From the IMG/VR virus record IMGVR_UViG_3300045988_001753, positions 1-64,000 of that record: a stretch of DNA of 64,000 nt; one strand, 5' to 3'. This DNA comes from a virus. Shown here in pieces: positions 1 to 30,924 of the stretch; the first letter of the stretch is position 1; the number at the start of each line of letters is the position of its first letter. The translations under genes were made by a program, and so were the position numbers. The notes under the pieces were generated by a model. The model saw only the letters and a program-made list of their open reading frames with translations. It did no database searches and was not told the DNA's origin.

Positions 1-11
1 AAAAAAAAAAG

Positions 12-377
12 ATGGAAAAGAATGAAGAAAAGGTTCTGGAAAGAAATCTGGAACAGAAGCATTTTGAAGATGCTGCAAAAGCCATTAAAGGTGGCAAAGA
101 GAATGGTGGTTTAACCAATGTTGAACTTGTTGAAAACTTGGTGGAAAGCTACAAAGGTAAGACAGTGCAAGCACCTGTTGAGGTGATTGTAACAAGTGCA
201 ATATTCCTCAATGTGAGAGAATTGATGGGCACTATTGAAGCCTTGAAACATACTCTTCACATTAAAATGGCAGAGGAGTTGAGAGAAAAAGCAGATAAGG
301 GAGAAGCTACAGCAAGAGATGCAATGGCTGCTCTTATGCTTGCTGCAATTATGAAGAAAGAATCTGAAGAAGATTAA
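12..377 (+). CDS. hypothetical protein (121 aa)
   Basis: ORF from the track. The ATG lies just after an A10 tract (1..10), a leader type that recurs in this window. No motif recognised. Confidence 0.55.
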   Translation: MEKNEEKVLERNLEQKHFEDAAKAIKGGKENGGLTNVELVENLVESYKGKTVQAPVEVIVTSAIFLNVRELMGTIEALKHTLHIKMAEELREKADKGEATARDAMAALMLAAIMKKESEED

Positions 378-382
378 TAAAC

Positions 383-805
383 ATGAGTGAAATCAAGTTA
401 AGTCTGAGTATTGAGCTTCGAGGAAGCACAATGTTCAGCAAGGAGGAGTGCCTTAAAACAACTCAAGAGACCATTACTACAAAGAATGGTAGAAAGAGAA
501 CAGTAACAAAAGTAGTTGAGGATTGGGACAAGATGGAGAAGCACACTATGAGAGTGACTGACAAGGATGGTACCAATCCAGAGATTATCACTTTCCATAC
601 AAGGAAGTGCAAGCCAGCTACACAGTCCCTGAACATGAGCAAAGAGGCTTATGAGTATATGATTGACAAGGATTCTTGTCCTTCATGGTCTAAGCCTGGC
701 AAGTGGGCTGCAATGAGTGAAAAGGAAAGACTTGAAGCTCATTTGCAGAGAACAGTAGAACATCTTGGGGGTACTTCGTACACTTACCAAGTGTTTGAGG
801 ACTAA
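383..805 (+). CDS. hypothetical protein (140 aa)
   Basis: ORF starts 6 nt after the previous stop and is followed by a hairpin plus T-run terminator. No motif recognised. Confidence 0.55.
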   Translation: MSEIKLSLSIELRGSTMFSKEECLKTTQETITTKNGRKRTVTKVVEDWDKMEKHTMRVTDKDGTNPEIITFHTRKCKPATQSLNMSKEAYEYMIDKDSCPSWSKPGKWAAMSEKERLEAHLQRTVEHLGGTSYTYQVFED

Positions 806-826
806 CTGGATATGTTCTCATAGTAG

Positions 827-869
827 AGGACAAGGGTATTATCAATATCCTTGTCCTTCTTTTTTTTTT
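827..869 (+). terminator. rho-independent terminator
   Basis: Perfect 9-bp stem AGGACAAGG (827..835) / CCTTGTCCT (849..857), followed by TC plus T10 (858..869). Confidence 0.75.
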
Positions 870-906
870 ACGACCTACTGACTAAGTGGGATAAAACTAA
901 GAGACT

Positions 907-1461
907 ATGGGATATGTTCCTAAATTTATACATCTTGACCATTTTATTGTCGTAGAATATCCATTTGGTGTTTATTGGAAGCATAGTTATATACAACAGA
1001 GTGCAGAAGCAATCTTCAATACATATAAAGAAGATATTGAGGAAGGTACAAGCATTACTTTTGTAGCAAGAGGCACATCAGGAGCCATGATTGCAGGTGC
1101 TATGCTTAATGAGTTACATAACATTAATCCAACTACTAAGACCTATATCCTGATTGTCAGGAAGGAAGAAGATACAAGTGCTCATTGTTCTTCATTAAGA
1201 GGAATTGATGAGGTTGGTACTACAAGGTTTATAGTTGTGGATGACTTTATAGCATCAGGTGAAACCATTGAAGCAGTTATACAAGCCTTAGATAGACAGC
1301 TTGGGGTGAGTTATCACCCATCTAATAAGTATGATATGCTTTGTGTAAGTAACTTCATTGATGCAAAAGCATTAAAGAAGAACTCATGTGATGATTACAG
1401 GAAGTGGAAAGGAATTTGTTCGAGATTTGAGTATGTAGTATGTTGCCCTAAACCAGAATAG
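907..1461 (+). CDS. type I phosphoribosyltransferase-fold protein, substrate unknown
   Basis: 184-aa ORF with the PRPP-binding loop FIVVDDFIASGETIEA, preceded by ARGTSGAMIAG. Confidence 0.6.
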   Translation: MGYVPKFIHLDHFIVVEYPFGVYWKHSYIQQSAEAIFNTYKEDIEEGTSITFVARGTSGAMIAGAMLNELHNINPTTKTYILIVRKEEDTSAHCSSLRGIDEVGTTRFIVVDDFIASGETIEAVIQALDRQLGVSYHPSNKYDMLCVSNFIDAKALKKNSCDDYRKWKGICSRFEYVVCCPKPE

Positions 1462-1462
1462 T

Positions 1463-1648
1463 ATGACAGCATTTAATGTGTTACTCCTCATTGTGCTATG
1501 TATTTGGATTATTGTAATGTATAATAAGTATTCTCCTAAGATTGATATAGTCACATCAAGGAATAAATACATTGTGCTATTATGGTATAACAAATGGTAT
1601 TGGAGTGGGGAGTGTAAGAGAACTTACATAAAACTGTTTGAAGTATGA
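1463..1648 (+). CDS. small hydrophobic protein (61 aa)
   Basis: Starts 2 nt after the previous stop. Has an N-terminal hydrophobic segment FNVLLLIVLCIWIIVMY. Its end overlaps the next ATG (ATGA). Confidence 0.4.
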   Translation: MTAFNVLLLIVLCIWIIVMYNKYSPKIDIVTSRNKYIVLLWYNKWYWSGECKRTYIKLFEV

Positions 1649-2406
1649 TAGAATTTACCCTTAATAGGAATAGGAATGGAAAGAAATCAAGATGGGCTAA
1701 GAAGTACCCAAGAAAGAGAATATTAAGGAGAGGCAGTGAGAAAGCTGCTGGATGGTATTTTCACAATTGGTATGATGATAGCTATCATTATTTCCACGGA
1801 GATTTGCATAAATTCCTGTTAAAGAATGTAGGCAGACCAGTAGATAAAGTATTTTCCGAGTTCTTGCAGAGGTGCAGAAGAGGCACTGAGAAGTATAATC
1901 TCAGAGAATGGTTCTATGATATGTTTGAAGAAAAAGAGAACATAGATTATAGAGGAGGATTCTACTTATCTAATGGTATTATTAACTACAAGAAGAAGAG
2001 CAAGAGACCTAAAGGTCCTTATGTTCCATCACCTTTTATATTATCACAATTCAACACTCAGAATCTTCCGAGTAAAAGAGAGTTGTATAATATATGTAAG
2101 AAGGCTGAGGAGACACATGAGAAGCAACTTCTTGGTACATTCTACATCTCAACTGGTTTATACAAATCAAGAAAGGCTACAGTCTATGTAGCAGCAAAGT
2201 CAGATTACAAGGCATCTTACTTTTATATGAGGATTGCCAAGATAAAGGAAATAGGTATAGGAGTCAGATTTTGGGTAAGTAAATCTCAGGATGGGAAATA
2301 CCTAATTGACCCTTATTATACCACCTATTCTGAATACAAATGGTCAAATAACAAGGAGTTGCCTGACTATGTATTTCTGACTAAAGAAGAGAAAATCTCT
2401 GACTAA
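1645..2406 (+). CDS. hypothetical basic protein (253 aa)
   Basis: ORF in an operon-like arrangement with a K/R-rich N-terminus. No motif recognised. Confidence 0.5.
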   Translation: MIEFTLNRNRNGKKSRWAKKYPRKRILRRGSEKAAGWYFHNWYDDSYHYFHGDLHKFLLKNVGRPVDKVFSEFLQRCRRGTEKYNLREWFYDMFEEKENIDYRGGFYLSNGIINYKKKSKRPKGPYVPSPFILSQFNTQNLPSKRELYNICKKAEETHEKQLLGTFYISTGLYKSRKATVYVAAKSDYKASYFYMRIAKIKEIGIGVRFWVSKSQDGKYLIDPYYTTYSEYKWSNNKELPDYVFLTKEEKISD

Positions 2407-2434
2407 GCAATATAAGTTTAACAAAAAAAAAAGC

Positions 2435-3958
2435 ATGAAAGAAGCAATTTTATTGACTGATGGCTATAAGTTAGACCATAGAAGGCAATACCCTGAAGGT
2501 ACAGAGTATGTCTACTCTAATTGGACTCCAAGAAGCTGTCATTATTACCCTGAGGCTGAGGAAGGTGCTGTTGTATTTGGAATACAATACTTTATCAAAG
2601 AGTATTTGATGAAGCAATTCCAAGAGGACTTCTTCAATAAGCCTAAGGATGTGGCAGTTGCAGAGTTTAAGAGAAGGGTAGATACATTTTTGGGACCTAA
2701 CAATGTGGGCACAAAACACATTGAGGAGTTGCATGACCTTGGCTATCTTCCCATTAGAATCAAAGCATTGCCTGAGGGTACATTGTGTCCTATCAGAGTA
2801 CCTGCATTGACATTCATCAACACTCATCCTGATTTCTTTTGGCTTACCAACTACTTTGAGACTCTCATCTCAACTACCTTGTGGTTGCCTATGACAAGTG
2901 CAATTACTGCAAGGTTGTATAAGAAGGAGTTGATAAGACATGCAAGGAAGACAGGATTTAAGGATGTAGACCTTAATTTCCTCATACATGACTTCTCTAT
3001 GAGAGGCATGGCTGGAGTAGAAGCTGCCATTATGTCTGGTATGGGTCATATGACTTCATTCTGTGGTAGTGAGACTATTCCTGCTATTGCTGGTCTTGAA
3101 GAGTATTACAATGCAGATGCTGAGAAGGAGCTTATTGCAGCTACAATTCCAGCAACAGAGCATAGTGTCATGTGTGCAGGTGGTAAGGAAGATGAATTGG
3201 AGACATTTAGGAGACTCATTACAGAGGTATATCCTACTGGATTTGTATCTATTGTCTCTGATACTTGGGATTTTTGGAAGGTAATGACAGAGTATCTGCC
3301 TAAGTTAAAGGATGAAATCCTTGCAAGGGATGGTAGGTTAGTCATAAGACCTGATAGTGGAGACCCAGTACATATCATTGCAGGCTATAAGCATGAGGAC
3401 TTTGAGACTTGGCAGGAGCAAACAGAAGTGCAAAACAGGATGAGTAGTACTGCTGAATGGGTAGGTGCATATCAAGTTCTGTGGGACATCTTTGGTGGTA
3501 CTGTCAATGAGAAAGGCTACAAGGTACTTAATCCCAAAGTAGGTATCATCTATGGTGATTCTATTACTCTTGAAAGGCAGAAAGAAATCTACAAGAGGCT
3601 TGAAGAAAGAGGCTTTGCAGCTACTAATCTTGTGCTTGGTGTAGGCTCATATACCTATCAGTATAAGAGTAGGGATTCTCTTGGCTTTGCTATGAAGGCT
3701 ACTTGGTGTCAGGTTAATGGGGAAGGAAGGGAAATCTTCAAAGACCCTAAGACTGATGATGGCACTAAGAAATCATTGAAAGGTCTTATTTGTGTTCAAG
3801 GTGATGGTGATAAGTATGTAGCTGAGGACCAAGTAACCAAGGAACAGGAAGAGAAGGGGTATTTGCAGACTGTCTTTGAAGATGGCAAGTTAGTTAAGGA
3901 GTGGACTCTAAGTCAGATTAGAGCCAATGTTGATAACTCAATTGTATTGGAGGATTAG
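2435..3958 (+). CDS. nadV: nicotinamide phosphoribosyltransferase family protein (NAMPT/NadV-like; possibly a NARP1 Namat-type enzyme)
   Basis: 507 aa with family-typical LLTDGYKLDHRRQY, IRPDSGDP and IIYGDSI. An A10 leader lies upstream (2423..2432). Confidence 0.85.
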   Translation: MKEAILLTDGYKLDHRRQYPEGTEYVYSNWTPRSCHYYPEAEEGAVVFGIQYFIKEYLMKQFQEDFFNKPKDVAVAEFKRRVDTFLGPNNVGTKHIEELHDLGYLPIRIKALPEGTLCPIRVPALTFINTHPDFFWLTNYFETLISTTLWLPMTSAITARLYKKELIRHARKTGFKDVDLNFLIHDFSMRGMAGVEAAIMSGMGHMTSFCGSETIPAIAGLEEYYNADAEKELIAATIPATEHSVMCAGGKEDELETFRRLITEVYPTGFVSIVSDTWDFWKVMTEYLPKLKDEILARDGRLVIRPDSGDPVHIIAGYKHEDFETWQEQTEVQNRMSSTAEWVGAYQVLWDIFGGTVNEKGYKVLNPKVGIIYGDSITLERQKEIYKRLEERGFAATNLVLGVGSYTYQYKSRDSLGFAMKATWCQVNGEGREIFKDPKTDDGTKKSLKGLICVQGDGDKYVAEDQVTKEQEEKGYLQTVFEDGKLVKEWTLSQIRANVDNSIVLED

Positions 3959-3959
3959 T

Positions 3960-4763
3960 ATGCAAATATTGAATCTTATTAGACCTGAAAAGAGTGATGT
4001 AAAGTATGAGGTTATACAGTTCCCTGATGGGGAACCTCATATTGTCTTGAATGGTATTGACAGGAAGGATGATTTAACTGTAGTATGTAGGATTTGTAAT
4101 CCTACAGACTTGTTTATCCTTATGCAAGTAGGTGATATTCTTAATAGACAAGGTATCTTGTTTGGCTTGGATATTGTCTATCTTATGAGTATGAGGATGG
4201 ATAGAGTAATCAGCTATGATGAGTCATTCTCTCTTAGTGTAGTTACACAAGTAATAAATGATATGTTCCCTCAAGCAGTTCATGTACTTGAGCCTCACTC
4301 ACATAAGGTGCAAGACCTTGTTGATGAATATTGGGGAGACATAGCTACTCCTATGCCAGATTTTGAAGGATACCTAAGGGTGTATCCTGACAAAGGTGCA
4401 TTACAGAGATATGGTGGAGACCCTAATAGTGATGTGATATGCAGTAAAGTGAGAGACCCAAAGACAGGACAACTCTCTGGCTTTAAGATTGAGAATCCAG
4501 AAGTCATTGAGAAGAATGTCAATCTGCCATTTGTAGTCATTGATGACTTATGTGATGGTGGAGGTACTTTCAAAGGCATTGCACAATTACTTGGCTTCCA
4601 TTATCCTGATAGGGAGAGAACTATCTATGTAACTCACATGGTCAATCCTAAAGGCATTACCACTCTCAGTGAAAACTATAAGGAGGTCTACTTTACCAAT
4701 TCATATAAGGATTGGAACAAGGAGACACTTCCTGATAATGTGAAAGTAATTGAAGTAGTATGA
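3960..4763 (+). CDS. ribose-phosphate pyrophosphokinase family protein (Prs-like; possibly a NARP1 Adps-type enzyme)
   Basis: The internal ATG at 3960 lies 1 nt after the NAMPT stop; the track start at 3927 overlaps NAMPT. Motifs: FPDGEPHI, MSMRMDRV (RQDR-like loop) and FVVIDDLCDGGGTF (PRPP loop). At 267 aa it is shorter than canonical Prs. Confidence 0.75.
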   Translation: MQILNLIRPEKSDVKYEVIQFPDGEPHIVLNGIDRKDDLTVVCRICNPTDLFILMQVGDILNRQGILFGLDIVYLMSMRMDRVISYDESFSLSVVTQVINDMFPQAVHVLEPHSHKVQDLVDEYWGDIATPMPDFEGYLRVYPDKGALQRYGGDPNSDVICSKVRDPKTGQLSGFKIENPEVIEKNVNLPFVVIDDLCDGGGTFKGIAQLLGFHYPDRERTIYVTHMVNPKGITTLSENYKEVYFTNSYKDWNKETLPDNVKVIEVV

Positions 4764-4960
4764 AAGCTGAGGTAATAGCAAAAGTTGCTGTATGGTTTGT
4801 AATCTTCATTGTCCTATTGACATTAGGACTTGAAATGATTTCAGCACCTAATACCATTGAGAATGTGATAGGATTCTTTATGGTAGTGGCAACATTATAT
4901 CTATCAGTCAGAACAAAGTGTTTAACAGCAATTAAATTAGAAAGAAAACATGAAAAGTAA
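4760..4960 (+). CDS. small membrane protein (66 aa, two hydrophobic segments)
   Basis: ATGA overlap with the upstream stop. Hydrophobic segments VAVWFVIFIVLLTLGL and VIGFFMVVATLYL. Confidence 0.5.
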   Translation: MKAEVIAKVAVWFVIFIVLLTLGLEMISAPNTIENVIGFFMVVATLYLSVRTKCLTAIKLERKHEK

Positions 4961-5735
4961 ATTGATTTTGGGACTTCTGTCCTTGTTTATGGTGTTCTCA
5001 ATGACATCATGTATGGAGAAGGTAGATGCAGGTTGTGAAGGCATCAAGGTGAATCTGTATGGCAGTGATAAGGGAGTGGATGATGCTTCTTTGGTAACTG
5101 GTATTGTATGGTACAATCCTTGGACCACCACAGTATATGAGTATCCTACTTATGTACAGACCATTGACTATGAGCCATTTACAATTAATGCAAAGGATGG
5201 TTCAGAGTTCACTGTAGACCCTACTGTATCATTGAAGATTATTGATGGTAAATCACCTGCTGTCTTTAAGAAGTACAGAAAAGAGTTGAATGAGGTAATC
5301 AAGGGTACTCTGTATAACTATGTAAAGGATGCCTTTAGAATCCAGCTCAATAAGTTTACTACTGATGACATTGTAAGTAAAAGGGATAGTATTGAGAATG
5401 CTATTGAAAGGTATTTGACTCAGGCACTTGCTAAAGAGAACTTTCAGTTGGAGCAGCTAACCTCTGGTCTCAAATATCCCCAGACTATTGTAGAGTCTGT
5501 AAATGCCAAGAATAAGGCTATTCAGCAGGCTATGCAGGTAGAGAATGAGGTTAAAGTGGCAGAAGCTCAGGCTAAGAAACTTATTGTAGCTGCTGAGGCA
5601 GAGAAGAAAGCCAATGAGTTGAGGCAACAGGCACTTACTCCTGCAATTCTTGAGAAGATGTGGATTGAGAAATGGGATGGTAAATTGCCTGTATATGGTC
5701 AAGTTCCTACTATATTCAAAGACATTAGTAAGTAA
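4950..5735 (+). CDS. SPFH/band-7 (prohibitin-like) domain lipoprotein
   Basis: Signal peptide with a lipobox-like LFMVFSMTSC. SPFH-like body and an Ala/Glu/Lys-rich coiled C-terminal part (EAQAKKLIVAAEAEKKANELRQQAL). Confidence 0.65.
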   Translation: MKSKLILGLLSLFMVFSMTSCMEKVDAGCEGIKVNLYGSDKGVDDASLVTGIVWYNPWTTTVYEYPTYVQTIDYEPFTINAKDGSEFTVDPTVSLKIIDGKSPAVFKKYRKELNEVIKGTLYNYVKDAFRIQLNKFTTDDIVSKRDSIENAIERYLTQALAKENFQLEQLTSGLKYPQTIVESVNAKNKAIQQAMQVENEVKVAEAQAKKLIVAAEAEKKANELRQQALTPAILEKMWIEKWDGKLPVYGQVPTIFKDISK

Positions 5736-5738
5736 GCT

Positions 5739-6059
5739 ATGGGATGGATTATATTAGGTATAGTGTTCCTTGTAGTGACCATTTGGTCACTCAGGGGCAC
5801 TACTTTTGCTGAATACCACTATCAGAATAGAGTGGATGAGCATCATGTTGCTGTATGGATGCTAATTATAGCTTTTATAATCTATTGTATTCCTATTATA
5901 GGTATCATGGCTTTCATAGCATACCATATATGGTTCTCCATACTTGCCAGTAGAAAGCCCCATCATAGCTATGAATATTTGATTATAGAGCTATCCAAGG
6001 AGAATGTATTACATAGGATATTGGGCACTATTGCCTGCTATTTAACAAAAGAAGTATGA
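5739..6059 (+). CDS. membrane protein (106 aa, about 3 TM segments)
   Basis: Hydrophobic stretches WIILGIVFLVVTIW, VAVWMLIIAFIIYCIPIIGIMAFIAY and HIWFSILA. Confidence 0.5.
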   Translation: MGWIILGIVFLVVTIWSLRGTTFAEYHYQNRVDEHHVAVWMLIIAFIIYCIPIIGIMAFIAYHIWFSILASRKPHHSYEYLIIELSKENVLHRILGTIACYLTKEV

Positions 6060-6529
6060 AACAGAGAGTATTCAACATACTCATCTCCTTTGCAGTAGGA
6101 GTACTTGGAGCAATTCAAGTACATTCCTACTTGAAGGAAGATGAACCACCTGAAATAGAGGTGGTACACATAGTTAATGAGGAGCAACCAGACTTCTTCA
6201 GTAAATCACCTCAAGAAGGCTTGATGGAAGCATTAGAATATTATGGGGTTAAACATCCTCAGATAGTCTATGCACAAGCTGTACTTGAAACTGGTCATTT
6301 TAAGTCAGACTTATGTCTGAATGGTAATAATCTGTTTGGCTTATACAATAGCAAGAAACACAGGTATCACACATTTGACCATTGGACTGAAAGCATAATT
6401 GCATATCTTAACTATGTGCAATATAGATACAAACCTCCGAATGACTACTATGAGTTTTTATCAGATATAGGGTATGCAGAAGACCCTGACTACATTAACA
6501 AATTAAAAGAAATTGTAAGTAGAAAATGA
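6056..6529 (+). CDS. membrane-anchored glucosaminidase-domain peptidoglycan hydrolase (endolysin candidate)
   Basis: N-terminal TM segment VFNILISFAVGVLGAIQV. FlgJ/glucosaminidase-type signature AQAVLETGHFKSDLCLNGNNLFGL with downstream HTFDHWTESI. Confidence 0.7.
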   Translation: MKQRVFNILISFAVGVLGAIQVHSYLKEDEPPEIEVVHIVNEEQPDFFSKSPQEGLMEALEYYGVKHPQIVYAQAVLETGHFKSDLCLNGNNLFGLYNSKKHRYHTFDHWTESIIAYLNYVQYRYKPPNDYYEFLSDIGYAEDPDYINKLKEIVSRK

Positions 6530-6612
6530 CAAGAGAAGAAGTGAATAGGTTGGCTTTATCTAAGATAGACAAGACCAAGTACCTTATCTTAGAGCTTATC
6601 ACTGGGATGGGT
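6526..6612 (+). CDS. SF2 (SNF2/DEAD-like) helicase, exon 1 (29 codons)
   Basis: ATG overlaps the upstream stop (ATGA). It reads MTREEVNRLALSKIDKTKYLILELITGMG, then K and a stop in the unspliced DNA. The Walker A motif is truncated after GMGK. Confidence 0.65.
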
Positions 6613-6663
6613 AAATAAAATAAGTATTTTACTTATCCTGTTGTATATATTAAATGTTATTTA

Positions 6664-6671
6664 TATCTTTG
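6664..6671 (+). promoter_or_regulatory. Bacteroidota-type -7 promoter box TATCTTTG (TAnnTTTG) inside the intron
   Basis: TATCTTTGCA lies 22 nt upstream of the endonuclease ATG at 6694. The spacing and core match the box at 35099. Confidence 0.45.
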
Positions 6672-6693
6672 CATAATTAATAAATTATTGATT

Positions 6694-7494
6694 ATGGGAA
6701 GATATAGAGAAATTACAAATGAAATTGTAGAGTTAGCAAATCAAGGATTAACTGCTACCGAAATAGCAAAAATTCTTGGAGTATGGAGACAGACAGTTTA
6801 TTATAAACTAAAGAAAATAGACAGGAGTATTCCTAACTATCATAATTCTTTGAAATTTGATAATACAGTATTTGATAATATAGATACAGAAGAGAAAGCT
6901 TACTGGTTAGGTTTTCTGATGGCTGATGGATATGTTAGTAAAAATTCAAATACTGTGGAATTAAGTCTAAAAGGCGATGATAGTGACCATTTAAATAAAT
7001 ATAATAATTTTATAAAGAATACTCAATCTATTAAATTTGGTAAAATAGTAAATAAAGGTAAAGAATACAGTAGGTGTAGGTGTACTGTAACTGACAATCA
7101 TTTTCATGATAGATTAGTAGAGTTGGGGTGCCTACCACAAAAATCTTTAACATTGAAGTTTCCTAATAAAAATATATTTGCAGAAGAGAGTCTTATTAGA
7201 CATTTTATAAGAGGGTATGTAGATGGAGATGGCTGTCTTAGCTATACAAAGACAGGTAGATTAGTTGTAGAAATAATGGGAACTAAAGAATTTCTAGGAG
7301 AAATAATATCTTTATATCCTGATTATTTTAAGAACACTTACCATAAAGATAAAAGAAGGCTATCTTCAAATACATATTGTATATCTTGTAGTTGTGCTAA
7401 TGCAGATAAATTTGCAAGTATTCTCTATGATAAATCTAATATATACTTGGATAGAAAATATAAAAGATTTGCCGTGTTAAGAAGAAATTCTTAA
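6694..7494 (+). CDS. LAGLIDADG homing endonuclease with N-terminal HTH
   Basis: Two LAGLIDADG motifs, YWLGFLMADGYVS and IRGYVDGDGCLS. N-terminal HTH-like LTATEIAKILGVWRQTVYY. The track start at 6688 is TTG; the first ATG is at 6694. Confidence 0.85.
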   Translation: MGRYREITNEIVELANQGLTATEIAKILGVWRQTVYYKLKKIDRSIPNYHNSLKFDNTVFDNIDTEEKAYWLGFLMADGYVSKNSNTVELSLKGDDSDHLNKYNNFIKNTQSIKFGKIVNKGKEYSRCRCTVTDNHFHDRLVELGCLPQKSLTLKFPNKNIFAEESLIRHFIRGYVDGDGCLSYTKTGRLVVEIMGTKEFLGEIISLYPDYFKNTYHKDKRRLSSNTYCISCSCANADKFASILYDKSNIYLDRKYKRFAVLRRNS

Positions 7495-7723
7495 TATAAT
7501 CACAGGGCAAAAACGGTGAAAGCTGAGATGCTAATACCGTGCTAACTAATTAAATTACGAAAGGTTAATTAGTAGTGTAGAGCGTAGGTCTTGAATAAAT
7601 ATAATAGACCCAAGAGTGTCCTGCATCTTAATAGGTAGAGCTAAAGATGAAAATGTACGCCGAGCTTACATTAAATGAAATGTAAGAACTGAGAGATAAA
7701 AAGCTCTTAGGATAACATAACTG

Positions 7724-8776
7724 AAAACTCGAATAGCAATAGACCTCATTAATCATATATGTGATAGGGTATTCAGGAATGATGAAAGCCCTACTACTAT
7801 ACTTATTCTTGTAGCTAAGACTGTGCACAAGCAGACTTGGAAGGATGAGATTGAGAAATGGGGAGGTATCAAGTCTGACTATATTACCATTGAATGCTAT
7901 GAGTCACTAAAGAACTATGAGAACTCATACTTTGATGTAGTAGTGGCAGATGAGATGCAGCATTTGTCAGAAGCAAGAATTGATGTATTGGAGACTATCC
8001 ATATCAATGAGTCTTTCATTGGATTGTCTGCCACTATTAAGAGAGACATGAGGGATTATTTCATTTACAACCACAAGGCTGAGGTCATTAAGTGTGGTCT
8101 CAAGGAAGCTGTAGAAGATGAAGTATTACCTGAGCCTACAGTATATCTACTGCCCTTGTCTTTAGACAAGTCTAATTATACCTATAAGGTTAAGAAGTTT
8201 GGTCGTGATATAATCACCACTCAGAAAGGTTGTTATGATAGTATCTCTTCACTTATAGAGTGGTACAAGAATAAGTACTTTAACTCAAGAAATGAGAGGA
8301 TAAAGAACTTATGGCTTTCAACAGCAGGCAAAAGGCTGAAGTGGTGTGCTGAACAGAAGGAAGCCCTTGTACTATCTCTTCTTGACAAGTTCAGGAATTA
8401 CAAGACTTTGACTTTCTGTAGTAGTATTGAACAGTCAGAGAGGTTAGGTAAATATAATATCACCTCGAAGAATAAGGCTTCAGTGAAGAACCTTGAGATG
8501 TTTAATCTTAATAAGATTAAACATATTACTGCCTGTAATATACTCAATGAAGGTGTGAACTTGACTAATTGTAGGATAGGCATATTCTGCAACTTGAATA
8601 GTTCGGAGATTGTAGTAAAGCAAAGAGTTGGTAGAATACTTAGACACAAATCTCCTATTATCATCATACCTTATTTCAAGGATACAAGGGAAGAAGAACT
8701 TGTACAGAAGATGATAGAGGAGTACTCTGAGGATTCTATCATTAGTGTTGATAGTATTAATGACATTAAGCTATGA
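7724..8776 (+). CDS. SF2 (SNF2/DEAD-like) helicase, exon 2
   Basis: The frame is open from 7721. It reads KTRIAIDLINHI...TTILILVAKT (motif Ia), VVVADEMQHL (motif II, DExx) and KQRVGRILR (motif VI). The track ORF begins at GTG 7823 only because there is no upstream ATG. Confidence 0.7.
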   Translation, partial: KTRIAIDLINHICDRVFRNDESPTTILILVAKTVHKQTWKDEIEKWGGIKSDYITIECYESLKNYENSYFDVVVADEMQHLSEARIDVLETIHINESFIGLSATIKRDMRDYFIYNHKAEVIKCGLKEAVEDEVLPEPTVYLLPLSLDKSNYTYKVKKFGRDIITTQKGCYDSISSLIEWYKNKYFNSRNERIKNLWLSTAGKRLKWCAEQKEALVLSLLDKFRNYKTLTFCSSIEQSERLGKYNITSKNKASVKNLEMFNLNKIKHITACNILNEGVNLTNCRIGIFCNLNSSEIVVKQRVGRILRHKSPIIIIPYFKDTREEELVQKMIEEYSEDSIISVDSINDIKL

Positions 8777-9372
8777 CAATATGTTTAAGTAAGGAAGGAT
8801 GTCAGAAGAACAACATTAGTCTTGCTGAGGCTCTCTTGATGCTTGCCATCCATAATAATGCTGACCTTGATACAGCTCAGAAGGAGCTGATTAAGAAGGG
8901 CTATATAACTGCTAATAGGGATGACTTATTCCAACAGATTGGATGGAGACTTACTAATAAAGGTACTGAGGTAATAGATTCTGTGATTGTGGATTCTGAT
9001 AAGAAACAGGAACCTAATGACAGGTTAATTCAGTTGGCTACAAGGCTCAAAGAGATATTTCCTAAAGGCAAAAAAGATGGCACTAACTATTATTGGGCAG
9101 ATGGAGTAGCTTTGATTGTACGAAGATTAAAGTTATTCTTTAAGAAGTATGGAAATACTTATACTGATGAGCAAATCATACAGGCAACCAGTAAGTATGT
9201 GGAAGGTTTCAATGGAAACTATACATATATGAGGCTATTAAAGTATTTCATATTCAAAGAGAAAGTTGGTGCTGCTGGTGAGATTGAGGGAGACTCAGAA
9301 TTGATTAGTTACATTGAGAATGCTGGTCAAGAAGAGAATTTAAGAAATGATTGGACTTCTACAATTAACTGA
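8773..9372 (+). CDS. hypothetical protein (199 aa), replication-module associated
   Basis: ATGA overlap with the helicase stop. No motif recognised. Confidence 0.5.
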   Translation: MTICLSKEGCQKNNISLAEALLMLAIHNNADLDTAQKELIKKGYITANRDDLFQQIGWRLTNKGTEVIDSVIVDSDKKQEPNDRLIQLATRLKEIFPKGKKDGTNYYWADGVALIVRRLKLFFKKYGNTYTDEQIIQATSKYVEGFNGNYTYMRLLKYFIFKEKVGAAGEIEGDSELISYIENAGQEENLRNDWTSTIN

Positions 9373-16876: not shown

Positions 16877-18032
16877 TTATAAGCTGATTATCCCAGCAGA
16901 AGTGGAGAGAAAGATAAGATTTGCCTGCCAAAAGGTGTGGAGTACTGAATGGTCAGGTACACTATTCTTTACACATGAAGGTTCATTTGAAAATAATGAC
17001 CTTGTAATAAGATGTGTGGATATTTACATTATGGATATTGGTACTCAAGCCTATACAGAGTTTGATATGAATCCTGATGTGATAGCCTATATGTGTGAGA
17101 ATCCTGAGCTACTTGATTGCCAAATGGGTCTTATACATTCCCATAACAATATGAGTACTTTCTTTAGTGGGACAGATACTGCTACTCTAAAGGAGGAAGG
17201 TAGGGATAGAAATAACTTTGTATCTCTCATTGTGAATAATGCAGGTACTTATACTGCTGCAATTACAAGGAGGGTTAAATCAAAGCAGGTCAAAGAATCT
17301 GTGTCTTATGAGTTCTTTGGTGATGGTGAAAAGCATGATACTAAGGAATATGTAAGTAGTGCAGATGAAATTGAATGGTTCTACCTTAAAATAGAGAAGG
17401 AAGGTGAGAATTATTCCTTTCCAGACATGGCAGCAAGACTTGAGGAAATCAAGCAAGCTAAAGCAGAAAGGGCAGAGAAAGCCAAGAAAGCTCAGACACC
17501 TGTATATCAAGATGGCTATAAACCTGTTATTGCTAATTCCTATGGTACAAAGGCAGGTCCAGCAAATCTTGTCAAGAAGGAAGCTGATAAGCCTAAGGTA
17601 GTTCAGCCAACTCTCTTTGATAATGTAGATGACTTGCCATTTGAAGAGGGATATGATATACCTTATGGTCAGGTATCATTTGATAAGGTTACTTTGAAAT
17701 CTCTTGTACTTCAATTGATTACAGGTAGTATTATCATTTCTAATGATAGCAAGATTGACATTACTAAATGGGCTAAGTCAATGCCTACCCTGTATGAAAA
17801 GAGGTTTGGTAAAGGCAAAGTTGGCATGGATAATTTCAAGATATGGGCAGAGACCTATACAGAGTATCTGACATGGTATATAACAGATGAGAAATTAGAA
17901 GAGCTTGGCTTTGATGAAACAGAAATTTGTGCTATTTGTGCCCATGATATGATAGAGGAGCTTACAAAACTCCCTGAAAATGATTATATCAAAGGGTATA
18001 TTGATGCACTTCAAAAGTATTTAGTATTATGA
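16815..18032 (+). CDS. JAB/MPN+ (JAMM) metallopeptidase-domain protein with long C-terminal extension
   Basis: Upstream Glu context STEWSGTLFF. IHSHNNMSTFFSGTD matches H-x-H-x7-S-x2-D (17136..17177). Confidence 0.75.
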   Translation: MEEVKQPTKVISLVQKSGTYNYKLIIPAEVERKIRFACQKVWSTEWSGTLFFTHEGSFENNDLVIRCVDIYIMDIGTQAYTEFDMNPDVIAYMCENPELLDCQMGLIHSHNNMSTFFSGTDTATLKEEGRDRNNFVSLIVNNAGTYTAAITRRVKSKQVKESVSYEFFGDGEKHDTKEYVSSADEIEWFYLKIEKEGENYSFPDMAARLEEIKQAKAERAEKAKKAQTPVYQDGYKPVIANSYGTKAGPANLVKKEADKPKVVQPTLFDNVDDLPFEEGYDIPYGQVSFDKVTLKSLVLQLITGSIIISNDSKIDITKWAKSMPTLYEKRFGKGKVGMDNFKIWAETYTEYLTWYITDEKLEELGFDETEICAICAHDMIEELTKLPENDYIKGYIDALQKYLVL

Positions 18033-18949
18033 CAAATAGTGAAATAGAAAATAGAGTAGCAGAATCTGAGAGAGCTTTAGAAGAAGCTATTGAAGAGTTC
18101 AACTCAGTAGAAGAGTATGAAGAGGCTCTTCAGAATCTTGATAATGATTCACCTTTGACAGAGGAAGAACAGGCTATTCTTGACCAAGCTGTAGAAGATG
18201 CACATCAAGAGATACCTACAAACTCTGCAACTTTGCTTGTGGATGAAGCTACAAGTAGGTTTAGTTCTGCCATTTGGTATGAGAACATTCAGAAGAAGAC
18301 TGTCATTTTGGCAGGTGTAGGTGGTATTGGTAGTTATGTAGGCTTCTTATTGGCAAGAATGAAGCCAGCTTCCATGTTCATTTATGATGATGACATAGTG
18401 GAAACTGTCAATATGTCAGGTCAGTTATATGGTCAATCTGATTTAGGTAGACCTAAGGTATCTGCACTGGCTGAGATGATTAGAAACTATGCTGGCTATA
18501 GCAGTGTCTTTGCAATAAGTGAAAGATTCACTGATGAATCTGAGGCATCAGACATCATGATTTGTGGCTTTGATAATATGGCAGCAAGAAGACTCTTCTT
18601 TAATAAATGGGTAAATCATGTTCAATCCAAACCAGAAGAGGAGAGAAAGAATTGCCTGTTTATTGATGGTAGATTAGCAGCAGAAGAGTTTCAGGTATTG
18701 TGCATCAAGGGAGATGATGAGTACAACATCAGTAAGTACAATAATGAGTTCCTATTCTCTGATGCAGAAGCTGATGAAACTATCTGCTCCTATAAACAAA
18801 CTACCTTCTGTGCAAATATGATTGCATCTTATATGGTTAATTTGTTTGTAAACTTCTGTGCTAATCAATGTGAGCCTCTCATTGATAGAGACCTGCCATT
18901 CCTTACCACATATAATGCAGAAACAATGTATCTTAAAACTGAAGTATAA
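18029..18949 (+). CDS. ThiF/MoeB/E1-like adenylyltransferase
   Basis: Rossmann loop VILAGVGGIGSYVGFLLARM (18314..18334) followed by IYDDDIVETVNMSGQLY. Acidic 85-aa N-terminal extension. ATGA overlap with the JAB gene. Confidence 0.7.
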   Translation: MTNSEIENRVAESERALEEAIEEFNSVEEYEEALQNLDNDSPLTEEEQAILDQAVEDAHQEIPTNSATLLVDEATSRFSSAIWYENIQKKTVILAGVGGIGSYVGFLLARMKPASMFIYDDDIVETVNMSGQLYGQSDLGRPKVSALAEMIRNYAGYSSVFAISERFTDESEASDIMICGFDNMAARRLFFNKWVNHVQSKPEEERKNCLFIDGRLAAEEFQVLCIKGDDEYNISKYNNEFLFSDAEADETICSYKQTTFCANMIASYMVNLFVNFCANQCEPLIDRDLPFLTTYNAETMYLKTEV

Positions 18950-22820: not shown

Positions 22821-25007
22821 ATGCAAGTAGTAAAAAGAGATGGCAGTATAGAGGAATTTAATGTTGATAAGATTATAAGTGCTGTAGAAAAAGCCTTTAA
22901 GTCTTGCAACAAGAAAATGCCTCAATATTTGTATGATATGCTGGGTGCTCTATTTGGCACTTTGGAAGGAGATACTATAGGTATTGAGGAGATACAGAAT
23001 AAGGTTGAGGATGTTCTTATGAATGATAAACACTTTGATGTGGCAAAGAGATATATCATTTATAGGGAACAGCATAAGCAGGCAAGATTCATTAGGGAAA
23101 GAATTGACTATATGAATGAGTATAGCCAATCCAATGAGAATGCAGCTACTTCATCAGAGACAGATGCCAATGCAAATGTAACTATGAAGAATGTTGCTAA
23201 TCTTGAGGGTGAAGTGTATAAGACTACCAATAGGGTTATTCAGAGGCAAAGAATGAAAGACAAGTTGAATGAAATGTACCCTGAAGTAGCCAAGAAGTAT
23301 GGAGAGGATTTGAACTCTCATATCATCTATACACATGATGAAGCAACTACTCCTGTCTTGAAGCAGTATTGTATGGCTGTGAGTCTATATCCTCTTATGA
23401 CTGAAGGAGTTGGCAATATTGATGGTATCACTCCAACACCTCCTAATGATTTGCAATCATTCAGTGGTCAAGTAACCAATCTTATCTTCTTGCTATCTTC
23501 TCAGTGTAAAGGTGCAGTGGCAGTAGGTGAATACTTTATTGCCCTTAACTATTACATTGTGCAAGAATTTGGTCCTAATTGGTATGAAAAGTTGGATGTA
23601 GTAACTACTACAGACCATTGCAGTAAGCAGAGGACTGTAAGAGATGCCATATATAAAGCATTCAAGCAGTTTATCTATGGTGTAAACCAGCCTGCTGGTA
23701 ATAGGTCATATCAAAGTCCATTTACTAATGTGTCTTATTATGACCATACTTACTTTGATTCACTGTTTGGAGAGTTCTATTATCCTGATGGTACTAAGCC
23801 TCAATGGGAAGCAGTAGATTGTCTGCAAAGGCTGTTTATGAAGTTCTTCAATAAGTTGAGAACCAAACAGATTCTTACATTCCCTGTAGAGACAATGGCT
23901 ATGGTGTATGACCCTAAGACCAATGATATTATAGACAAAGACTACAAAGACTTTACTGCTGAAATGTATGCAGAAGGTCATAGCTTCTTCACCTATATAT
24001 CAGATAGTGCTGATAGTCTTGCATCATGTTGTAGATTGAGAAATGAGCTTGCAGAGAATACTTTTAATCCTACATCAGGTCTTACTGGTGTGATGACTGG
24101 TTCATGCAATGTAATCACTCTTAATATCAATAGAATTGTACAGGATTGGTATAATAAGGAATTTTATCCCAAGTGGGGCACAAGCATTATTAATAATGAG
24201 GAATGGACTACTAAAGGGCTGAAAGATTATCTTGTAAAGATACTTGAGAGAGTATATAAGTACCATATAGCATTTAAGACAATGCTATATGAACTTGAAG
24301 ATAAGGGTATGTTTGCTGCTTCAAATGGTGGGTATATTCACATCAGCAAATTGTATAGTACTATAGGTATCAATGGCTTGAATGAGGCTGCAAGATTCTT
24401 AGGTATGACTGTTGGCAACAACAAGGAGTATATTGAGTTCCTGCAACTGGTTCTTGGTACTATCAAAGAGCAGAATAAGATACACTCTATCCATGATGCC
24501 AATAGACCATTCTTATTCAATTCTGAGGTAGTTCCTGCTGAAGGGTTAGGAGGAAAGAATTATAATTGGGATAAGGAAGATGGATATTGGGTTCCTGAGG
24601 ATGAGAATTTGTATAATTCATACTTCTATGATGCACATGATGACACCTCAGTACTTGATAAGTTCATACTTCATGGAAGACAGACTTACCAATATACTGA
24701 TGGAGGCAGTGCAGCTCATATCAATCTTGAAGACCACCTTAGCAAGGAACAGTATCTCAAACTGATAGACTTTGCAATAGCTAATGGAACCAACTACTTC
24801 ACATTTAATATTCCTAATAGTAAGTGTGATGACTGTGGCTACATTACTAAGCATCCCATCACTGAATGTCCAAAGTGTCATAGTAAGAATATCACTCAAT
24901 ATACAAGAGTGATTGGCTATCTCAGACCTATCAAATCATTTGGCAAAGACAGGCAGATTGAGGCAAGTCATAGAACTTATAGTGATGGAAGGAGTGAGAT
25001 ATGCTAA
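22821..25007 (+). CDS. nrdD: anaerobic ribonucleoside-triphosphate reductase (class III)
   Basis: ATP-cone N-terminus VVKRDGSIEEFNVDKIISAV. C-terminal Zn site CDDCGY...CPKCHS and glycyl-radical-type RVIGYLRP. Confidence 0.9.
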   Translation: MQVVKRDGSIEEFNVDKIISAVEKAFKSCNKKMPQYLYDMLGALFGTLEGDTIGIEEIQNKVEDVLMNDKHFDVAKRYIIYREQHKQARFIRERIDYMNEYSQSNENAATSSETDANANVTMKNVANLEGEVYKTTNRVIQRQRMKDKLNEMYPEVAKKYGEDLNSHIIYTHDEATTPVLKQYCMAVSLYPLMTEGVGNIDGITPTPPNDLQSFSGQVTNLIFLLSSQCKGAVAVGEYFIALNYYIVQEFGPNWYEKLDVVTTTDHCSKQRTVRDAIYKAFKQFIYGVNQPAGNRSYQSPFTNVSYYDHTYFDSLFGEFYYPDGTKPQWEAVDCLQRLFMKFFNKLRTKQILTFPVETMAMVYDPKTNDIIDKDYKDFTAEMYAEGHSFFTYISDSADSLASCCRLRNELAENTFNPTSGLTGVMTGSCNVITLNINRIVQDWYNKEFYPKWGTSIINNEEWTTKGLKDYLVKILERVYKYHIAFKTMLYELEDKGMFAASNGGYIHISKLYSTIGINGLNEAARFLGMTVGNNKEYIEFLQLVLGTIKEQNKIHSIHDANRPFLFNSEVVPAEGLGGKNYNWDKEDGYWVPEDENLYNSYFYDAHDDTSVLDKFILHGRQTYQYTDGGSAAHINLEDHLSKEQYLKLIDFAIANGTNYFTFNIPNSKCDDCGYITKHPITECPKCHSKNITQYTRVIGYLRPIKSFGKDRQIEASHRTYSDGRSEIC

Positions 25008-25477
25008 AGTATGTGGATGCAAAAGTAGTCTTTGCTGAAGTGCCAGATGAAGTAACTCTTGCTATCAACATATCTAATTGTCCATGTCAATGTAAGGGCT
25101 GTCATAGCTCTTACTTGGCAGAGGATATTGGTAATCCACTGAATAAGACAGTCCTCAGCAAACTTTTGGAAGATAACAAGGGAATATCTTGTGTGTCTTT
25201 CATGGGTGGTGATAGGGACACTATACATATAGTAGCTTTGGCAAGTTGGGTAAAAACTCATACAAACTTAAAGGTTGCATGGTATAGTGGTAGGCAAGAG
25301 ATTAGTGATATAGTAGCAAGGCAATTAAGGTGGTTTGACTACATTAAACTTGGACCTTATAAGGAGGAGTTTGGTCCACTTAACAGTAGGACTACCAATC
25401 AAAGATTTTACAAGGTCAGTGGTAGAGAGTTGGTAGACATAACAAATAAATTTTGGAAACATGAAACTGAAAATTAA
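25001..25477 (+). CDS. nrdG: anaerobic RNR activating protein (radical SAM)
   Basis: Cys cluster CPCQCKGCHS near the N-terminus. 158 aa, overlapping the nrdD stop. Confidence 0.8.
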   Translation: MLKYVDAKVVFAEVPDEVTLAINISNCPCQCKGCHSSYLAEDIGNPLNKTVLSKLLEDNKGISCVSFMGGDRDTIHIVALASWVKTHTNLKVAWYSGRQEISDIVARQLRWFDYIKLGPYKEEFGPLNSRTTNQRFYKVSGRELVDITNKFWKHETEN

Positions 25478-30720: not shown

Positions 30721-30924
30721 ATGAGACAATATACATCAAGAGAGTTCATAAAGATAGTGGAATTTAATGGTTTCTATTATAGCAGACATAATGGAGACCA
30801 TGCTATCTATGTGAATGATAAGGGAAGGCATATCAGCATACCTAAGAATCTTGAATGTGTAATTGCTCGTAGACTGATTAAAGAGAATAACTTGGTAACA
30901 GACATTAAAAAGAAAAAGAAATGA
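30721..30924 (+). CDS. hicA: HicA-like mRNA interferase toxin-family protein
   Basis: 67 aa. YTSREFIKIVEFNGFYYSRHNGDHAIYVN..GRHISIPKN...ARRLIKE follows the HicA/YcfA pattern, with GDH in place of GSH. Confidence 0.6.
   Translation: MRQYTSREFIKIVEFNGFYYSRHNGDHAIYVNDKGRHISIPKNLECVIARRLIKENNLVTDIKKKKK

Follow-up and report, generated by a model that had tools for sequence, protein, structure and literature searches.

A probable NAD+ reconstitution pathway 1 cassette in a crAss-like phage of Bacteroidales

Described NARP1 systems and the crAss-like locus

NAD+ reconstitution pathway 1 (NARP1) was defined by Osterman et al. (bioRxiv 10.1101/2024.02.11.579819), who found it in 859 phage genomes (4.3% of their survey), with 97% of Adps-clade proteins adjoining a Namat. 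In the validated systems of SpβL1 and FADO (Bacillus), Bas63 (Escherichia) and ICP1 (Vibrio), the pathway is encoded by adjacent genes for a protein of the phosphoribosyl pyrophosphate (PRPP) synthetase (Prs or PRPS) fold, Adps, and a protein of the nicotinamide phosphoribosyltransferase (NAMPT) fold, Namat, without a gene for nicotinamide mononucleotide (NMN) adenylyltransferase (NMNAT) (PMC12774641; PMC13586617). Analysis of a 64-kb stretch of viral DNA (positions 1 to 64,000 of IMG/VR record IMGVR_UViG_3300045988_001753, hereafter the window) revealed a gene pair of the same composition at 2435-4763, which is very probably a NARP1 cassette of a gut crAss-like Bacteroidales phage. No new mechanism is involved, NARP1 being established and the lineage being already present in the tables of the defining paper.

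Both chemical steps and the anti-defence role can be proposed by homology to the SpβL1, Bas63, FADO and ICP1 enzymes. NADase effectors of a host defence (SIR2, TIR or similar) would cleave NAD+ into ADP-ribose (ADPR) and nicotinamide. Adps would then move the beta,gamma-pyrophosphate from ATP to the 1'' hydroxyl on ADPR's terminal ribose, yielding ADPR-pyrophosphate (ADPR-PP) and AMP. Namat would bind ADPR-PP, the adenine being gripped by an aromatic clamp at the pocket entrance, and would swap the pyrophosphate for nicotinamide, giving NAD+ directly without an NMN intermediate or an NMNAT. The predicted outcome is the refilling of an NAD+ pool emptied by host NADase defences.

CrAss-like phages rank with the most abundant viruses in the human gut. 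The window encodes Crassvirus muzzle, cargo and ring proteins together with giant RNA-polymerase-like proteins, identifying it as part of a Crassvirales (Steigviridae) phage. Its DNA is 84-87% identical to that of the uncultured phage cr85_1 (Crassvirales, Steigviridae, Kahnovirus) and of bajarodcaudo virus 1, with Bacteroides phages as more distant matches. The host belongs to the Bacteroidales, whereas the hosts of the validated NARP1 phages are Firmicutes and Proteobacteria.

The closest database relative with the pair is cr85_1 (MT774390), whose Namat and Adps are 93% and 83% identical to those of the window and whose genes share the same order, the same 1-nucleotide (nt) spacing and the same place upstream of an SPFH gene. 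In the tables of Osterman et al. (10.1101/2024.02.11.579819), MT774390_00115 is an 'Adps-associated' Namat homologue (Table S2) and MT774390_00114 is listed together with DAC15, DAC17 and Lak phage proteins as a Prs/Adps homologue (Table S1); the entry 'Namat within 10 genes: Yes' is given at least for cr85_1 and DAC15. The pair of the cr85_1 sub-lineage also occurs in the Bacteroides phages DAC15 and DAC17 and in Prevotella Lak megaphages. The novelty claimed for the locus in a first-pass annotation, made from the letters of the window alone, was therefore set too high, since the lineage had already been catalogued through cr85_1. In the literature, we found no paper that treats NARP1 specifically in crAss-like phages.

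The same annotation had described a NAMPT-family gene of 507 amino acids (aa) followed by a Prs-family gene of 267 aa, and both gene models stand, the first on the map of open reading frames (ORFs) and on Pfam, PHROG and NCBIfam matches, the second on the lengths and N-termini of homologues. The motifs it quoted (LLTDGYKLDHRRQY, IRPDSGDP, IIYGDSI, MSMRMDRV and FVVIDDLCDGGGTF) are all present. The adps gene starts at 3960 rather than at the ATG at 3927, because the homologues, in cr85_1 and in dozens of metagenomic relatives, have lengths of 266-267 aa and start with MQ(I/V)LNL. This ATG lies 1 nt past the namat stop on the same strand, and such close spacing of stop and start suggests that the two genes are probably translationally coupled. 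In cr85_1, namat carries an in-frame TAG (~4502-4504) at the position of the CAA codon for Gln51 in the window (2585-2587) and is for this reason annotated as two coding sequences in GenBank, while the window copy is intact. A recoding of TAG to Gln in cr85_1 is unsupported, as its 22 tRNAs include no CUA suppressor, so that a nonsense mutation or a sequencing error is the more likely explanation.

Family placement and specificity residues of Namat

The 507-aa protein matches the Pfam families NAPRTase (3e-39) and NAMPT_N (1e-10) and PHROG 448 'nicotinamide phosphoribosyl transferase' (1e-203), and scores 561 bits on NCBIfam NF006629, for which the cut-off is 405. A phmmer search of all PDB sequences gave as the best match the crystal structure of SpβL1 Namat (9w5x/9w5w, E=2e-163), the entries cited in the Namat structure paper (PMC12774641), with the human and Xanthomonas Nampt at E ~1e-65. 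Pairwise identity is 55% with SpβL1 Namat over 476 aligned residues and 47-55% with the Namat of FADO, Bas63 and ICP1, compared with 30-33% for the Nampts of the T4-like phages RB43, 44RR2.8t and VS1. This grouping with Namat rests on pairwise identities and PDB E-values rather than on a bootstrapped tree. A NAMPT-family enzyme for phage NAD+ restoration is also part of NARP2, which combines Nampt with a bifunctional Nmnat/Nudix protein in Vibrio phage KVP40 and other T4-like phages. Unlike NARP2, the window has no Nmnat, and in addition to the low identity its enzyme departs from NARP2-type Nampts at diagnostic motifs (GSYTYQY versus GGGLLQ, YGDSI versus QGDxI, ATEHSV versus AREHST).

The 'selectivity clamp' of Namat consists of a helix with the motif GSxΦxΦxΦTRD, whose aromatic residues 3 and 7 stack on the adenine of ADPR-PP or NAD+, and of a variable loop providing a further stacking residue (PMC12774641). 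In the window protein, the helix reads G404-S-Y-T-Y-Q-Y-K-S-R-D414, with Tyr at positions 3 and 7 and the Thr replaced by Ser. The corresponding segment is GSFTYQYNTRD in SpβL1 Namat, GGALLQKVDRD in Xanthomonas Nampt and GGGLLQ in the phage Nampts. The clamp loop, S34-C-H-Y-Y38, is long as in Namat and resembles, on sequence comparison only, SDKWF of Bas63 and SNKYF of FADO, in which the fourth residue stacks.

Mapping the catalytic core of SpβL1 Namat (D13, Y15, F189, R192, D215, R306, D308) onto the window protein gives D9, Y11, F187, R190, E213, R305 and D307, six residues being identical and the change of D215 to E213 being conservative. The conserved set includes R305, the equivalent of SpβL1 R306, whose mutation abolishes NARP1. 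Among the SpβL1 NAD+-contact residues checked, 17 of 20 are identical or conservatively substituted. Besides D215 to E213, the changes at contact positions are A362 to Ser, F392 to Tyr, T398 to Ser and R40 to H36.

Departure of Adps from PRPP synthetase

The 267-aa protein matches PHROG 619 'ribose-phosphate pyrophosphokinase' (5.6e-47) and falls below the cut-offs of all curated Prs models. Its score on the Prs model TIGR01251 is 31.5 bits against a cut-off of 113, where validated Adps proteins reach 96-138 bits and E. coli Prs 423 bits; the best NCBIfam Prs equivalog gives 34.9 bits against a cut-off of 296. With blastp, it scores 53-100 bits to eight Adps proteins from outside the crAss-like phages and 30 bits to E. 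coli Prs.

Our Adps alignment, whose numbering reproduces the published ICP1 D212-D213-I-C215-D216 and SpβL1 K162, shows that all Adps residues found essential by mutagenesis in ICP1 and SpβL1 are kept. ICP1 H121, D161, K185, D212 and D213 correspond to H113, D144, K163, D195 and D196 in the window protein, and the catalytic Lys, K162 in SpβL1, is K163. The PP loop, D195-D-L-C-D-G-G-G-T-F204, follows the DD[IL]CDGGxTF pattern of validated Adps. The three positions of this loop that discriminate Adps from Prs carry the residues typical of Adps, C198, G200 and F204, as opposed to I223, T225 and L229 in E. coli Prs, so that CDGGGTF stands in place of the IDTGGTL of cellular Prs. The catalytic hairpin, SKVRDPKTGQL, fits the Adps pattern K-x-R-[DN]-x-x-T-G and differs from DKRRPRANV in Prs. 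The C-terminus coincides with the Adps ends, ~27 residues short of the end of E. coli Prs, and helices alpha11-alpha12 are absent (267 aa versus about 315 aa for cellular Prs); the loss of these helices is a defining signature of the Adps family (PMC13586617). Searched exhaustively with phmmer, a set of 1.84 billion cluster representatives yielded 5328 relatives at E<=1e-3. Among the 128 full-length sequences of the best 150 relatives, with a median length of 277 aa, the PP-loop signature is that of Adps in 111 and that of Prs in one.

The AlphaFold2 (AF2) model of the 267-aa protein (pLDDT 93) has the two-domain PRPS fold. Comparison with Foldseek gave TM-scores of about 0.75 (TMq 0.70-0.77) to the E. 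coli, B. subtilis and human PRPS, in a PDB set that contained Prs but not the ICP1 Adps structures, so that only Prs structures matched. The window protein thus shares with cellular Prs the fold and the Asp, His and Lys residues that bind ATP and ribose. Taken together, the sequence criteria that the literature offers for telling Namat from Nampt and Adps from Prs all support a placement on the NARP1 side. The first-pass proposal of a NARP1-type pair is supported by the identity split, the clamp motif, the failure on Prs models, the Adps-type PP loop and the predicted fold.

The same two superfamilies could also serve ordinary salvage, in which the Prs-like protein would boost PRPP, the NAMPT-like protein would make NMN and a host adenylyltransferase would finish the synthesis, supplying NAD+ for replication with or without a defence to counter. 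Membership in the Prs and NAMPT superfamilies fits this scheme, and validated Namat enzymes retain in vitro the ability to convert PRPP into NMN (PMC12774641), so that some salvage flux is possible. As an account of the locus it is nevertheless very unlikely. Besides lying far below every curated Prs model, the 267-aa protein lacks the Thr of the ribose-5-phosphate loop of Prs (CDGGGT in place of DTGGT) and the regulatory C-terminal helices, and SpβL1 Adps reportedly does not act as a Prs, as far as the legend of Fig. 2D on its reaction with ribose-5-phosphate or ADPR plus ATP indicates. For the SpβL1 enzymes, the reported in vitro outcome is no PRPP from ribose-5-phosphate and, with ADPR-PP and PRPP in competition, NAD+ as the sole product. 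The 507-aa protein carries the adenine clamp, which is required for the use of ADPR-PP and dispensable for PRPP chemistry (PMC12774641). Moreover, phage Nampts working via NMN come with a phage Nmnat in 94% of cases, and none was found in the window.

This last point agrees with the first-pass annotation, which had seen neither NMNAT nor Nudix. Pfam scans detected no CTP_transf_like (NMNAT), Nudix or Macro domain in any called ORF of the window, and the HxGH and SSTxIR motifs are confined to short junk frames, with none in a real ORF of the window. In the complete cr85_1 genome, no NMNAT motif was found in ORFs of at least 80 aa, and there is no such annotation. The known accessories of NARP1, the Macro-domain ADPR-1''-phosphatase Adpp and the RyR-domain glycosidase RyDEP, are likewise absent from the window, where the Pfam scans detected no RyR domain in any ORF. 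In this the locus differs from NARP1 extended by Adpp (NARP1-AP) or by RyDEP.

Several observations weigh against assigning the pair to NARP1. With validated Adps proteins the window Adps shares only 25-30% identity, and its score on the Prs profile, below theirs, marks it as a divergent branch in which the specificity for the acceptor could have shifted. In a neighbour-joining tree the crAss/Lak proteins fall within the Adps group, a monophyly that is not rigorous because the tree is small and has a single Prs outgroup. A hidden Markov model built from eight Adps proteins separates the window protein (135 bits) only slightly from E. coli Prs (125 bits); this model was set aside as a discriminator on its own, the contrast with Prs models and the residue signatures being more informative. 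In Namat, the nicotinamide-contacting Asp (SpβL1 D215) is Glu (E213, in SFCGSET) in the crAss-like relatives examined, at a position where every other Namat or Nampt sequence aligned has Asp (GTDT); in SpβL1, the D215A substitution lowers activity about 8-fold. The clamp-loop Arg40 of SpβL1 is His36, followed by Tyr-Tyr. To these points are added the NMN synthesis retained by Namat enzymes, the ~34 kb (about one third) of the ~98-kb phage genome that lies outside the 64 kb scanned for NMNAT, and the fact that the assayed NARP1 enzymes are all from outside the crAss/Lak sub-lineage. The gene order, namat then adps, is also the reverse of that in the validated systems.

These differences are compatible with NARP1 membership and leave a small chance of altered specificity. 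Because the crAss/Lak Adps is the branch most distant from Prs, Glu replaces Asp, the order is reversed and, in some phages, a phosphoribosyltransferase (PRTase) gene and a 253-aa gene stand next to the pair, one may consider a pathway that is extended or altered and is adapted to the NADase defences found in gut Bacteroidales. Such a pathway could accept a different ADPR derivative or pyridine base, or could involve the PRTase acting on PRPP or ADPR-PP. We regard it as improbable, and the NARP1 assignment as the better description of the pair.

Cassette mobility, neighbouring genes and other features

Mapping of insertions and deletions by blastn (window 1-9000 versus contig L010 and relatives) shows that the namat-adps pair behaves as a self-contained mobile two-gene cassette of ~2.4 kb, since it is gained or lost through clean insertions and deletions while its neighbours assort separately. 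In L010, collinearity with the window ends at 2450 and resumes at ~4835, with ~150 bp in place of the cassette. Contigs L010-12 lack only 2451-4834 and keep the PRTase and 253-aa genes, cr85_1 lacks 888-2399 (the PRTase and 253-aa genes), and in bajarodcaudo virus 1, which keeps the PRTase gene, 1547-4746 (the 253-aa gene and NARP1) is missing. In other relatives, the 253-aa gene (L013-15) or the namat-adps pair (L022-26, as in cr85_1) is found alone, and L016-19 carry the same four-gene block as the window. The adjacency of Namat followed by Adps is kept in distant crAss-like contigs. That some lineages carry the cassette and close relatives do not implies an influence of NAD+-depleting defences on the range of Bacteroidales strains that these phages can infect, and pairs of genomes with and without it are natural material for that question.

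Table 1. Positions in the window of the cassette and of the adjoining features
Feature	Position	Strand	Basis
Type-I PRTase, 184 aa	907-1461	+	ORF map, Pfam PF00156
crAss-like-phage-specific protein, 253 aa	1645-2406	+	ORF map, homologues
namat, NAMPT family, 507 aa	2435-3958	+	ORF map, Pfam/PHROG/NCBIfam, phmmer
adps, truncated PRPP-synthetase fold, 267 aa	3960-4763	+	ORF open from 3927, internal ATG 3960
Two-gene cassette as insertion/deletion relative to cassette-less crAss-like contig L010	2451..4834	+	blastn
Terminator-like hairpin, 15-bp stem and T-run	826..858	+	Consensus scan only

The cassette slot is bounded by a conserved 140-aa gene on one side and by a small membrane ORF, then an SPFH/Band_7 gene, on the other. 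The adps stop overlaps the ATG (ATGA, 4760) of this 66-aa hydrophobic ORF, which in turn overlaps the start of the lipoprotein-like SPFH/Band_7 gene (PHROG 200; window 4760-5735). The pair formed by the small membrane ORF and the SPFH/Band_7 gene is kept in every related locus examined. Upstream of it, the region 806-4960 of the window is a hotspot of gene gain and loss with clean junctions, and in other lineages a TROVE (Ro60-like) gene lies near the hotspot. In some public metagenomic gene calls (P0018, P0035, P0163), Namat is joined to Adps, or the 253-aa protein to Namat; this is probably due to the 1-nt spacing or to assembly errors, real fusions being unlikely.

The 184-aa protein upstream belongs to the type-I PRTases (Pfam PF00156, 1e-8, 35 bits with a cut-off of 26.3), with a canonical PRPP loop, RFIVVDDFIASGETI, and 271 highly conserved homologues, on crAss-like contigs where the context was checked. 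A substrate could not be assigned to it, as orotate, adenine and uracil PRTases and retron PRTase effectors gave only sub-threshold matches. For the 253-aa protein, scans of Pfam, PHROG, NCBIfam and PADLOC came back empty, and neither a profile search of PDB sequences nor a Foldseek search of the PDB with its AF2 model gave a match. In this model (pLDDT 73 overall), a strongly basic segment predicted to be disordered (residues 1-46) is followed by a folded alpha/beta body with pLDDT 80-95. The protein has at least 181 homologues; all the long contigs listed with it are ~100 kb, and those examined are crAss-like.

The first-pass annotation had placed a PRTase and a basic 253-aa protein directly upstream of the pair on the same strand; the position is correct, and the two genes are not linked to the pair, given the free assortment in relatives. 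In an extended four-gene module, either or both of these proteins would cooperate with Namat and Adps as Adpp (NARP1-AP) or RyDEP do, for example by feeding in another NAD+ breakdown product or by using PRPP or ADPR-PP. Other NARP1 loci are known to have taken up accessory enzymes, the four-gene block recurs in several independent metagenomic contigs (L016-L019), and in the window the four genes lie on one strand with a terminator-like hairpin just upstream. A consensus scan found no terminator-like site of comparable strength between 907 and 4763, and the transcription unit that contains the cassette may begin at the hairpin, which lies just before the PRTase gene. The relatives show the PRTase gene alone, the PRTase and 253-aa genes together, the 253-aa gene alone and NARP1 alone, neither upstream protein has a Macro, RyR or other ADPR-related domain, and the model of the 253-aa protein matches no known fold, all of which make such a module unlikely. 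With every combination of presence and absence produced through clean insertions and deletions, the two genes were rejected as demonstrated parts of the pathway. They are independent residents of the same hotspot that vary independently of the namat-adps pair, and the NARP1 cassette proper is thus limited to two genes.

A scan for sigma-70 promoters gave a count not above the shuffled expectation, and a search of the whole window against Rfam gave no hits. Downstream of the locus, an insertion of 1.1 kb at 6616-7723, which carries an ORF for a LAGLIDADG/HTH homing endonuclease (6688/6694-7494), interrupts a SNF2/DEAD-like helicase gene (6526-8773) within the Walker A motif (…ELITGMGK | KTRIAIDL…). 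Four related phages or contigs lack the insertion and have an intact gene of 378-379 aa. It is probably a mobile group I intron and stays unclassified because Rfam gave no hit at the gathering threshold. Further along, the window encodes a ThiF/E1-like protein and an anaerobic ribonucleotide reductase (NrdD with ATP-cone and NrdG-like activase) at 18029-18949 and 22821-25477, and the same phage also encodes ThyX, dUTPase, UDG, thioredoxin and a HicA-like small ORF (30721-30924). None of these genes is NAD+-related, and the set is typical of crAss-like phages.

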